DNA of 64,000 nt, taken from Candidatus Poribacteria bacterium. Lineage in GTDB: Bacteria > Poribacteria > WGA-4E > WGA-3G. The position numbers and the translations under genes were made by a program. Location of the stretch: contig OZ240248.1 in the NCBI GenBank assembly GCA_965198235.1, positions 3,040,001 to 3,104,000 on the forward strand, given 5' to 3'. Positions 5,799 through 7,383 of this stretch are shown here, piece after piece. The notes below the pieces were generated by a model that saw nothing but the letters and a program-made list of their open reading frames with translations, was not told the origin of the DNA and did no database searches. Numbering within the stretch: position 1 is the stretch's first letter; every line of letters starts with the position of its first letter.

Positions 5799-5953
5799 TT
5801 AAGTCTCACTGTATGTTTTTTATTAGAAGGTTATAGATTATATCAGGAATTGTAGCACATTTCGAGCGAAATGTCAAATTATTGCAGGGGCTCACACCCA
5901 GAGCCATTCAATTCTCACGAGGTGCCTTTGTGGGAGGGCTTTATCAGTTTCTT

Positions 5954-6169
5954 GTAGGTTGGGTTGAACGCAACTTCACCAGAACCCACAATCCTCGCAA
6001 ACCTCGGACGGACAAAAACACATTAATATCTCCAATCCCGTAGTGAAACCCAACGAAAGCCTTGGAAAGTTGGGTTTCGCTGTCTTCCTGTGATGCGGCA
6101 GGGTTCTCCAAGATTAGGGGTTTCTTGGGTATATCCCGGTCTGGGTCGGTTCCGCTCAACCCAACCTAC
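5954..6169. repeat. REPIN-like doublet of inverted GTAG-type REP units
   Basis: GTAGGTTGGGTTGAACG...GAAACCCAAC / GTTGGGTTTCGCT...CGCTCAACCCAACCTAC. Related copies at 38633-38865 and 54955-55249. Confidence 0.8.
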
Positions 6170-6338
6170 GTCCCTCCATGCCCATAATCCTGTAAATCCT
6201 GATTCAGACAACTGCTTGTCGATCTCCCCTCCCGATTCCTAACTGCTATTCTGCTGTAGGAGCGAGTGTTTTTGCTTGGGTGTTTCCCCATGCTCGCGAC
6301 TCTTGTTGACTGCTAACGACTGCCCCCAAAGAAATAAA

Positions 6339-6367
6339 TTGACAGACCACCGTATACGCGGTAAAAT
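6339..6367 (+). promoter_or_regulatory. Sigma70-type promoter
   Basis: TTGACA-N17-TAAAAT. Confidence 0.75.
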
Positions 6368-6387
6368 ATGTATGGAATTTGCACGAT

Positions 6388-6616
6388 GTCAGTAACCCAC
6401 TCCTAAAGGATTGGGCTTGCGCGAAGCGTAGCCAAACGTCCACTCCGCAAGTTAAACCGCTGACTATAGGTCGCCCGGACCCGTGGCGATATCAATAACG
6501 GGCATAGCGGGTCCGCAGGCACCCGAGAACAACAAAGCCTGCACTTACCCGTAAAAAAAGGAGGGCGGTTTTTCCTCCTAAACCTAAAGGATTGGGTTCC
6601 CAAACCGTGAACGTAG
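6388..6616 (+). mobile_element. Non-autonomous IS200/IS605 (IscB-type) mini-element / stand-alone omega-RNA (HEARO)-like ncRNA
   Basis: Left end GTCAGTAACCCACTCCTAAAGGATTGGGCTTG and right end TTCCTCCTAAACCTAAAGGATTGGGTTCC share CCTAAAGGATTGGG. The interior is structured and has no transposase or nuclease ORF. ATGA follows immediately 3'. Confidence 0.7.
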
Positions 6617-6633
6617 ATGAAAAGGAGACTACT

Positions 6634-7383
6634 ATGAAGTTAGCACGATATGAATTAAATGGCACAATCAGTTACGGCATTGTCTCAGGAGACAATCTAA
6701 GCGTCCTATCGGGATGCCCGTTCAGTGAATATAGCGAAACTGGGGAAACCGTCGCGTTAGCGGATGTCAAACTGCTTGCCCCGACGACACCCACACAGGT
6801 GTTGGCTGTCGGCTTGAATTATCGGAGTCATTTGGGCGGAGATCCGGAACCGCAAAACCCTGAAATCTTTATCAAAACGCCTTCCTGTATCAACGACCCG
6901 GAGGGCAATATTGAATTACCCGATGGCGATGATGAAATCCACGCCGAAGGTGAACTCGTCGTCATAATAAAGGAACGGACAAGCAAGGCGACCCCGGAAG
7001 AAGCAGCCGCCAACATTTTGGGCGTGACCTGCGGCAATGATGTCAGCGCACGCACATGGCAGAGCAACGACATGCAGTGGTGGCGCGCCAAAGCATCTGA
7101 CACCTTTGGCCCCATGGGTCCCATCATCGCTACTGATGTTGACTACACCGATGCCCAATTGGAGACCCGCATCAACGGCGAAGTCGTCCAGAAGCAGACC
7201 ACTGCCGATCTTATTTTCCCGGTGACAACGGTTGTCAGTTTCATTTCGCAGGCGATTACTCTTGAACCGGGGGATGCAATCTTTACCGGCACACCCGGCA
7301 CAACAACTGCTTTGAAAGCCGGTGATGTCGTTGAGATTGAAATTGAAGGCATTGGCATTCTGAAAAATCCTGTCATAGCGTAG
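6634..7383 (+). CDS. Fumarylacetoacetate hydrolase family protein
   Basis: Motifs VGLNYRSH, EGELVVII, GNDVSAR, KASDTFGPMGP, TLEPGDAIFTGTP. RBS AAGGAG upstream. Confidence 0.93.
   Translation: MKLARYELNGTISYGIVSGDNLSVLSGCPFSEYSETGETVALADVKLLAPTTPTQVLAVGLNYRSHLGGDPEPQNPEIFIKTPSCINDPEGNIELPDGDDEIHAEGELVVIIKERTSKATPEEAAANILGVTCGNDVSARTWQSNDMQWWRAKASDTFGPMGPIIATDVDYTDAQLETRINGEVVQKQTTADLIFPVTTVVSFISQAITLEPGDAIFTGTPGTTTALKAGDVVEIEIEGIGILKNPVIA

Follow-up and report, generated by a model that had tools for sequence, protein, structure and literature searches.

What a short, protein-free and apparently structured element is doing between the promoter and the ribosome-binding site (RBS) of a bacterial gene is the question raised by a 64,000-nt stretch of the Candidatus Poribacteria genome, contig OZ240248.1 (hereafter the window, to which coordinates refer unless marked as genomic). 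The element, copy W at 6388-6616, lies upstream of a gene of the fumarylacetoacetate (FAA) hydrolase family, and the initial annotation, made from the letters alone, had taken it for a protein-free, IscB-type mini-element of the IS200/IS605 group, with a guide in its 5' flank, a target-adjacent motif (TAM) in its 3' flank and a possible second life as a regulator in the 5' untranslated region (UTR). Our analysis leaves little doubt that copy W is a non-autonomous element, of the kind called a palindrome-associated transposable element (PATE) or a MITE (miniature inverted-repeat transposable element), that descends from the IsrB elements of its own lineage, having lost isrB and had its guide-RNA scaffold remodelled.

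The limits of the element are given by its copies. Three further full-length copies, A, B and C, 75-78% identical to W, are present in the genome (Table 1), and in the four the similarity starts exactly at GTCAGT and stops after a final TG, directly before ATGA (ACGA in copy B), while in alignment their 5' flanks are unrelated. Copy W runs from GTCAGTAACCC, whose first base is 6388, to ..GAACGTAG, whose last is 6616, so that the 229-bp element with precisely these ends, and with ATGA next to it, is as had been proposed. The empty sites of copy A are clean (AT directly followed by ATGA) in the seven relatives whose locus was read, and because they join the left flank directly to ATGA we conclude that the element inserts 5' of ATGA without target-site duplication, ATGA being host sequence. 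This is shown for sibling copy A, and the limits of copy W are set by analogy with it; at W itself the evidence is that homology breaks off at ATGA and that one relative retains a remnant (G072, see below). A 91%-identical relative of copy A occupies a different locus in another genome of the genus (G075). The element has no protein-coding capacity, for at 229 bp, and with copies that differ by indels of 1, 2, 7 and 11 columns, no reading frame is kept.

A family model (R1) built from the four genomic copies, which it scores at 245-258 bits, has matches in 60 of the 61 genomes of the genus that were scanned. Thirty-two matches were fetched and aligned, and proved to be 28 true mini-elements, three omega-RNAs running into the start of isrB and one other deletion form. 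The 28 mini-elements (loci L002-L004, L044-L057 and L073-L082; 219-253 bp) come from 15 of the 61 genomes and bear out the multi-copy nature of the element. When 151 genomes were drawn from across the phylum, a sister genus yielded 13 more mini-elements in 4 of its 38 genomes, mini-elements above 100 bits were confined to these two genera, and none at E <= 1e-25 was found in 51 genomes of other families. R1 matches of about 127-133 nt were considered as a second, shorter class of MITE and rejected, since the 13 that were read turned out to be full-length IsrB omega-RNAs of which R1 had matched just the first ~133 nt.

The parentage follows from both ends of the element. The genome has seven loci with an RRXRR domain, comprising five full-length open reading frames (ORFs; 341-355 aa, no HNH motif), one truncated ORF and one of 621 aa with HNH. 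One of the short RRXRR ORFs matches the solved IsrB of Desulfovirgula (DtIsrB, 8DMB) with an E value of 7.3e-35, the DPG, ED and H..D positions of RuvC being aligned, and the five full-length HNH-less ORFs are genes for IsrB nickases. Over their first ~95 nt the mini-elements align with the region just upstream of the IsrB genes at genome positions 4954387, 1584144 and 4647887, and R1 gives these IsrB-upstream RNAs 47-70 bits. Over the last ~65 nt the match is to the end of the IsrB ORF, its stop-codon-bearing hairpin and a terminal ..CCGAAGATTTTG followed by ATGA. The same homology at the 3' end is seen in 80 related IsrB loci (L103-L182), which are the best 80 of 382 relatives in a collection of species genomes and all come from metagenome-assembled genomes of Poribacteria. 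The search that had been suggested for IscB or IsrB elements with the same ends thus found them within this genome, and it corrects the assignment in one respect: the IS200/IS605 lineage and the protein-free nature hold, and the parent is an IsrB without HNH rather than an IscB. Four outcomes named beforehand as telling against the proposal (a single copy, no empty site, no element with these ends, no covariance-model match) all failed to appear; what we found was a multi-copy element, an empty site for a sibling, IsrB elements with the same ends and, for the family model, matches to the resident IsrB omega-RNAs.

IsrB elements are greatly expanded in these bacteria, single genomes in the species-genome collection holding ten or more of the 382 relatives. 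The 621-aa ORF is the sole HNH-bearing IscB of the genome and lies outside the window (contig C1, 1472438-1474303, minus strand); its match to RRXRR falls into two separate stretches, suggestive of a large insertion, and the best HEARO match of the genome, which at 68.4 bits is still under the cut-off, stands just upstream of it.

The two ends of the element also resemble each other. An end-hairpin core, CTAAAGGATTGGG, is present at both ends of W (at 6403 and 6584), and the subterminal hairpins at the two ends are alike and resemble the ends of IsrB elements; the corresponding helices, 2 and 10, covary, and do so jointly within each copy. A hairpin CCCAAACCTAAAGGATTGGG is common to the IsrB-type mini-elements and the ends of elements carrying tnpA and tnpB, but two copies of the latter diverge after ..GGTTTGATAA and not before ATGA, so that their TnpA is a mere candidate for the transposase that moves the mini-elements. 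The genome has 37 matches to the zinc-ribbon domain of TnpB.

The 28 copies were aligned with MAFFT, and the structure tested on this alignment consists of a closing stem (P1), two stem-loops (SL1 and SL2), two H-type pseudoknots (A and B) and a 3' end hairpin. Of the 1442 cells of the alignment assigned to pairs 86.8% are paired, compared with 33.8-43.9% when the partners are slid by one to three columns, and 28 of the 52 pairs have changed on both sides. The 5' domain (6388-6464) is homologous to that of IsrB omega-RNAs, and within it SL2 and the UUAAAC that follows are nearly invariant in copies that differ by 25-35% elsewhere. In pseudoknot A, stem a (GUCGCY/RGCGAU) is paired in 95.8% of cells and stem b in 93.6%, and all five pairs of the latter (helix 7) have changed on both sides, giving variants as different as CCCGU/ACGGG, UGUGU/GCACA, UAUGC/GCAUA, UGCGC/GCGCA and CCCAC/GUGGG. 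In pseudoknot B, stem b takes the form GCAGGC/GCCUGC or ACAGGU/ACCUGU and is 97% paired; stem a does poorly in the column test because two subfamilies are offset by one column, but taken sequence by sequence it has at least 5 bp in all 28 copies and at least 6 bp in 24, compared with 30% and 9% of shuffles. Because many cells are G-U, the fold belongs to the plus strand, that is, to the RNA sense of the element.

When the sequence of W is read against this structure its helices are intact save for one non-canonical A-A pair in the 3' end hairpin, and SL2 carries a compensatory change from U-A to C-G. The single-sequence fold of W is no better than that of shuffles (z -1.20); the support for the fold is covariation, not folding energy, and on that support we hold it quite probable that the family's RNA fold is under selection. 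Of the four internal pairings noted at the outset, GTCAGT/GCTGAC, CTTGCG/CGCAAG and GCAGGC/GCCTGC are conserved in the family; GGACCCG/CGGGTCC is a perfect 7 bp in W only, and in its place the family keeps CCCGU/ACGGG and CGGGU/ACCCG. Two other pairings were set aside: a closing helix of CUAUAGGU with the 3' hairpin, suggested by the HEARO alignment, is by eye not kept in the other copies, and for a pairing of the two element ends, given by RNAalifold on the four genomic copies, P1 accounts better for the 5' end.

ATGA stands at the 3' flank of 25 of the 28 mini-elements and of 69 of the 80 full IsrB elements (again the best 80 of 382), and together with the empty sites of copy A these counts confirm it as the flanking target motif; the 5' flanks vary among the mini-elements, as they should if the guide position lies there. 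The motif fits the TAMs published for IsrB, which are described as NTGA or TTGA, ATGA being cleaved by DtIsrB, while four other orthologues, those of Crocosphaera and Dolichospermum among them, are described as using NTG (PMC9581776).

The ATG of the flanking ATGA is frequently a start codon. In 18 of the 28 mini-elements it begins an ORF that is at least 78 codons long or extends to the end of the fetched DNA, and when four orthologous pairs are merged it does so at 15 of 24 independent loci (p 1.5e-5), the baseline being 21% for all 42,241 ATGA sites of the genome. Full IsrB elements behave in the same way, ATGA opening at least 78 codons in 36 of the 69 (p 1.6e-8) among the best 80 of 382 relatives. 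Nine of the 18 start-codon mini-elements have a tetramer like the Shine-Dalgarno (SD) sequence among the final 16 nt of their 5' flank. Copy W fits the pattern loosely, its ATGA lying before the SD and 17 nt upstream of the start codon. Several elements leave an SD-like sequence on their far side from the start codon.

A published account of IscB-type elements offers a context for this residence. In it the guide RNA is composed of a scaffold from the transposon's right end and a guide outside the element, and because the guide is encoded outside, such elements need transcription that starts outside them (10.1101/2023.03.14.532601). In the naming of that account W has its right end at the 5' side in RNA sense, and its left end, with the TAM, at the side of ATGA. 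Residence at start codons accords with a suggestion in print that 5'-guided elements persist at sites transcribed by the host.

The orthologous FAA-hydrolase gene is present in 63 of the 64 other genomes of the genus, and in 62 of the 63 the similarity to the window starts at 6610-6634, past the element. The leader is about 50 nt long with a small covarying hairpin in G004, G005, G014, G020 and G023, about 110 nt with short tandem repeats in G012, G054, G056 and G067, and contains another short repeat in G006 and G073. A sister species, G072 (locus L094), shares the 5' flank of W, ATGTATGGAATTTGCA, and of the element it has only about 40 nt at the 3' end left, followed by ATAA rather than ATGA, ~185 bp having been deleted from the ancestral insertion. 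Since G072 shares both flank and remnant, the insertion predates the split of its species from that of W. Since the element is otherwise absent from the leader in relatives, a conserved regulatory role at this gene is unsupported, and the suggestion of a 5'-UTR regulator finds no backing in conservation (absent in the 64 other genomes, bar the remnant in G072). The hairpin of the ~50-nt leaders, CTTCGGC..ATAAATT..GTCGAAA with variants, shows compensatory changes and lies just 5' of the RBS (L033, L037, L040, L041 and L042); it may be the native leader structure and is absent in the genome of the window.

Taken together these data are compatible with the following scheme, in which the RNA would consist, in order, of a variable host flank at the guide position, P1 with SL1 and SL2, the two pseudoknots, about 57 nt of the other end and the host ATGA. 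A Y1 TnpA acting in trans, of presumed identity, would move the element as single-stranded DNA and insert it 5' of ATGA without duplication. Lying in the sense orientation in a 5' UTR, at W 20 nt past the -10 box, the element would be transcribed by the host to give some 14-16 nt of flank plus scaffold, as guides for IscB and IsrB require. Most probably a resident IsrB nickase would then bind the conserved 5' domain and recognise the vacated site, that is, flank plus ATGA, whereupon the element would be copied back, as in the published model of restorative homing. At the level of the family we lean slightly towards this whole chain, its last step included. For the old copy W in particular, continued service to IsrB in trans is rather doubtful. 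A bolder version, in which the mini-elements are guide-only parasites whose compact, re-knotted ~165-nt omega-RNA would hijack the IsrB of others and depend on host promoters, lodged where 5' UTR and start codon meet with retention coupled to host transcription, and in which W, its captured guide also addressing the start of the downstream ORF, could be an incipient RNA-guided regulator of that gene, strikes us as improbable.

Several observations count against a scheme of IsrB-served mini-elements, and the most serious comes from the cognate RNAs. Fifty-nine distinct full-length RNAs of the same IsrB clade have a scaffold of ~200-219 nt from GTCA to ATG, and past the 5' domain they form a long stem, AUCGC.GUAUC/GAUAC.GUGAU, around two hairpins. 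The loop of the first of these, UGGYA, could kiss the loop of SL2 (UACCA/UGGUA, AGCCA/UGGCA), and that of the second, GCUCCCCAAG, by our reading would face a downstream GGGG; by analogy we infer that these two contacts correspond to the adaptor-like and nexus-like pseudoknots of DtIsrB. The mini-elements retain just a stem like AUCGC/GCGAU, both internal hairpins being gone, and in DtIsrB disruption of pseudoknots is reported to have abolished nicking (PMC9581776). With both hairpins absent, it is doubtful that a canonical IsrB complex forms, unless pseudoknots A and B stand in for them. The mini-elements, with two pseudoknots of their own instead, are more than shortened omega-RNAs, and mainly because the lost contacts may or may not be replaced by A and B we regard it as evenly balanced whether the RNA serves IsrB in trans. 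By comparison with the omega-RNA of DtIsrB (284 nt, PDB 8DMB), as described in PMC9581776, the mini-element RNA is alike in having its guide 5' of the scaffold, a 5' stem domain with two stem-loops, an architecture rich in pseudoknots and a TAM of the NTGA type, with ATGA cleaved. It is unlike in having no adjacent isrB, in lacking the hairpins to which we ascribe the adaptor-like and nexus-like pseudoknots, and in length, its scaffold of ~165 nt being shorter than those of the cognate local IsrB RNAs (~200-219 nt) and of DtIsrB (262 nt).

The HEARO model (RF02033) scores the element at 17.5 bits against a gathering score of 83 (E 0.62). An Rfam scan of the window gave no family at gathering score, only this sub-threshold HEARO match and noise from chrB-b, sR38 and sR44. 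The model aligns P1 and both 5' hairpins to 6388-6464, P1 around the CCUAAAGG hairpin and the CUUG...CAAG hairpin corresponding to model positions 1 to ~70; its 3' two-thirds are unmatched, and no HNH or IscB ORF follows the element. The expected kinship with HEARO is borne out for the 5' domain and falls short of the gathering score. None of the six tnpA genes above the Pfam cut-off in the genome has IsrB-type ends within 400 nt. As for the empty allele, clean empty sites exist for sibling copy A in the seven relatives, whereas the predicted junction at W, GCACGAT directly followed by ATGA, was found with the flanks of W in none of the 64 other genomes of the genus, and copy W itself is an old insertion. 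The 500 shuffles of the alignment, none of which reached any observed measure, overstate significance, the copies being related, and more weight belongs to the slide control and to the number of distinct compensatory variants. On the supporting side, two contigs from RNA libraries bridge element and gene (one covers 6510-6662 with 2 differences, the other 6567-6890 with 9, and both are from one study) and another carries copy A with its flanks; being RNA-library contigs, which may stem from contaminating DNA, they give a weak hint of co-transcription of element and gene.

Of the other explanations, the first is that the element is a selfish MITE whose RNA is inert: the end hairpins alone would matter, to TnpA and as single-stranded DNA, and the inner fold would be a relic that neither binds IsrB nor affects the host. 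The loss of the two hairpins of the cognate omega-RNA, a fold of W no better than its shuffles and the apparent harmlessness with which G072 shed most of the element are all what this explanation would lead one to expect. We nevertheless consider it unlikely, since the inner helices 6, 7 and 9, far from the ends, stay paired through compensatory changes, SL2 is almost invariant across otherwise diverged copies, the G-U pairs tie the fold to the strand of RNA sense, which is not the one that TnpA acts on, going by the orientation described in print (10.1101/2023.03.14.532601), and the enrichment at start codons, with the element in the sense orientation, points to some importance of transcription. 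If the RNA does matter, it might do so for the host, as a stable module that makes an insertion in the 5' UTR, often in the gap between SD and AUG, tolerable through mRNA stability or initiation of translation. Such a truce would accord with the adjoining start codons in 18 of 28 copies (9 of the 18 with the SD-like tetramer in the 5' flank), with the want of a terminator-like site in 5800-6700 and with the RNA-library contigs that extend from element into gene. It is hard to reconcile with the full-length IsrB elements, which have a different inner RNA and the same start-codon bias, so that the bias needs no mini-element fold, with a conservation of SL2 that matches the IsrB omega-RNA, or with the last 20 nt of the element, in which by our reading no translation signal stands at a useful distance; we rate it as a small chance.

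Two further explanations concern the FAA-hydrolase gene itself. The flank of W, ATGGAATTTGCACGAT, matches the start of that ORF, ATGAAGTTAGCACGAT (6634-6649), at 13 of 16 positions, including all 7 nt next to the TAM, and the orthologous ORF start in G005 and G023 at 14 of 16, and it is possible that W guides IsrB to its own downstream gene, where binding or nicking at the ORF start would make it an RNA-guided 5'-UTR regulator. The near-cognate site has its ATGA and lies 246 nt downstream of the flank; a site of this kind within 300 nt was found for W alone among the 28 copies, so it is no family property, yet at such a distance and in this orientation it is very unlikely by chance. When the flanks of four copies were searched against the genome at up to 3 mismatches, other targets were scattered and none had ATGA save this one. 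Speaking against a targeting role are the three mismatches, the want of conservation (in G072 the scaffold is lost, and other relatives have other leaders) and the fact that IsrB is a nickase, and the likeness is most simply explained if insertions at two neighbouring ATGA sites, 33 nt from each other, underwent a rearrangement and the upstream copy of the leader was then lost; we think a targeting role very improbable. To the last alternative, a conserved riboswitch-like cis-regulatory leader of the gene, we give next to no credence: the element is indeed structured and sits between promoter and RBS, but comparison of the locus refutes it, the element being missing from the other genomes of the genus apart from the G072 remnant, the same element stands upstream of unrelated genes, and no Rfam family reaches its gathering score in the window.

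Among systems in print the closest are the PATEs, protein-free derivatives of IS200/IS605 elements that often encode omega-RNAs for nucleases encoded elsewhere (10.1101/2023.03.14.532601). As described there, they share with the mini-elements the lack of a protein gene, ends like those of nuclease-bearing IS200/IS605 relatives and a need for TnpA in trans; the mini-elements differ in belonging to the IsrB lineage, in coming from another phylum, in preferring ATGA at start codons and, going by the description of PATE RNAs in the text of that report, in having a remodelled scaffold rather than a plain copy of the parental omega-RNA. Stand-alone omega-RNAs form the other comparison, with which the mini-elements share a locus that lacks an adjacent nuclease gene, the nuclease presumably coming from elsewhere; they are described for IscB, whereas here the RNA is structurally remodelled and part of a two-ended mobile element. 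Altae-Tran and colleagues reportedly found in 2021 that such stand-alone omega-RNAs work with IscB in trans. Stand-alone omega-RNAs that work with IscB are also cited in PMC9581776. In the literature searched we found no description of an IsrB-lineage mini-element with a remodelled, doubly knotted scaffold, although earlier catalogues (their supplements) may hold relatives, and none of start-codon residence for such elements; the searches made returned nothing that links Poribacteria to IS200, IscB or IsrB elements, and the literature on Nezha and other MITEs held nothing bearing on this family.

If IsrB does use these RNAs, the mini-elements would provide a natural minimal omega-RNA scaffold, one with the 5' domain kept and two hairpins swapped for two small pseudoknots, with a direct use in shrinking guide RNAs for IsrB and IscB, and they would show how guide RNAs can exist as mobile units in their own right, separate from the nuclease. 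The ATG-A residence of mini-elements and full IsrB elements alike gives a testable picture of how 5'-guided OMEGA elements obtain transcription from outside.

Table 1. Features of copy W, its surroundings and its sibling copies (window coordinates unless marked genome).
Feature	Position	Strand	Basis or remark
Host sigma-70-type promoter of the FAA-hydrolase gene, TTGACA-17-TAAAAT	6339..6367	+	consensus scan, 11/12 positions
Guide-position flank ATGGAATTTGCACGAT	6372..6387	+	16 nt 5' of W; transcription start inferred
Non-autonomous IS200/IS605 (IsrB-lineage) element, copy W, 229 bp	6388..6616	+	250.4 bits to family model R1
5' domain: P1 (6388-6393 with 6459-6464) enclosing end hairpin SL1 (6396-6415) and SL2 (6416-6451)	6388..6464	+	helices 1-5, 87-100% of cells paired
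Pseudoknot A: stem a GUCGCC 6470-6475/GGCGAU 6485-6490; stem b CCCGU 6480-6484/ACGGG 6498-6502	6470..6502	+	helices 6, 7
Pseudoknot B: stem a CGGGU 6508-6512/ACCCG 6521-6525; stem b GCAGGC 6515-6520/GCCUGC 6537-6542	6508..6542	+	helix 9
3' part with homology to the end of full IsrB elements	6560..6616	+	alignment with IsrB 3' ends, this genome and 80 loci
GGAGG/CCUCC hairpin, remnant of the IsrB C-terminal coding region	6560-6578	+	
3' end hairpin; terminal segment	6579-6594; 6595-6616	+	
ATGA, host target motif at TAM position	6617..6620	+	copy A empty sites; 25/28 mini-elements; 69/80 IsrB elements
ORF start ATGAAGTTAGCACGAT then ATGA, near-cognate to flank 6372-6387	6634..6653	+	match search
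FAA-hydrolase-family gene, 249 aa	6634..7383	+	PF01557 (E 7.9e-59) and PF10370
Copy A	genome 1866635		full-length mini-element
Copy B	genome 1012452		full-length mini-element; 3' flank ACGA
Copy C	genome 3157919	-	full-length mini-element

The promoter that precedes the element was read correctly at the outset as near-consensus, with TTGACA at 6339-6344, a 17-nt spacer and TAAAAT at 6362-6367. From this -10 box it is 20 nt to the start of the element, the flank GGAATTTGCACGAT ending at 6387. The same promoter, TTGACAG.CC..N..TA(A/T)AAT, is found ahead of the orthologue in relatives with no element there, one of them (G014) being 100% identical over 6326-6370, and it is the FAA-hydrolase gene's own. 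A consensus scan of the region 5800-6700 gave 5 promoter-like sites, compared with 1.1 +/- 1.1 in shuffles, and no terminator-like site. On the 3' side of copy W the ATGA is followed by AAGGAG (6622-6627) and, at 6634, by the ATG of the FAA-hydrolase-family gene; the divergent gene upstream encodes a semialdehyde dehydrogenase.

The same intergenic region holds two other repeats. One, of ~230 bp at about 5940-6172, has copies 77-85% identical in G004, G006, G014 and G024. The other, a short repeat of ~50-65 bp at about 6232-6324 (CTGTAGGAGCGAGTG...CCATGCTCGCGA), has the character of an inverted repeat and very many copies across the genus, mostly 83-100% identical, and it is found inside the leader of the orthologous FAA-hydrolase gene in G006 and G073.

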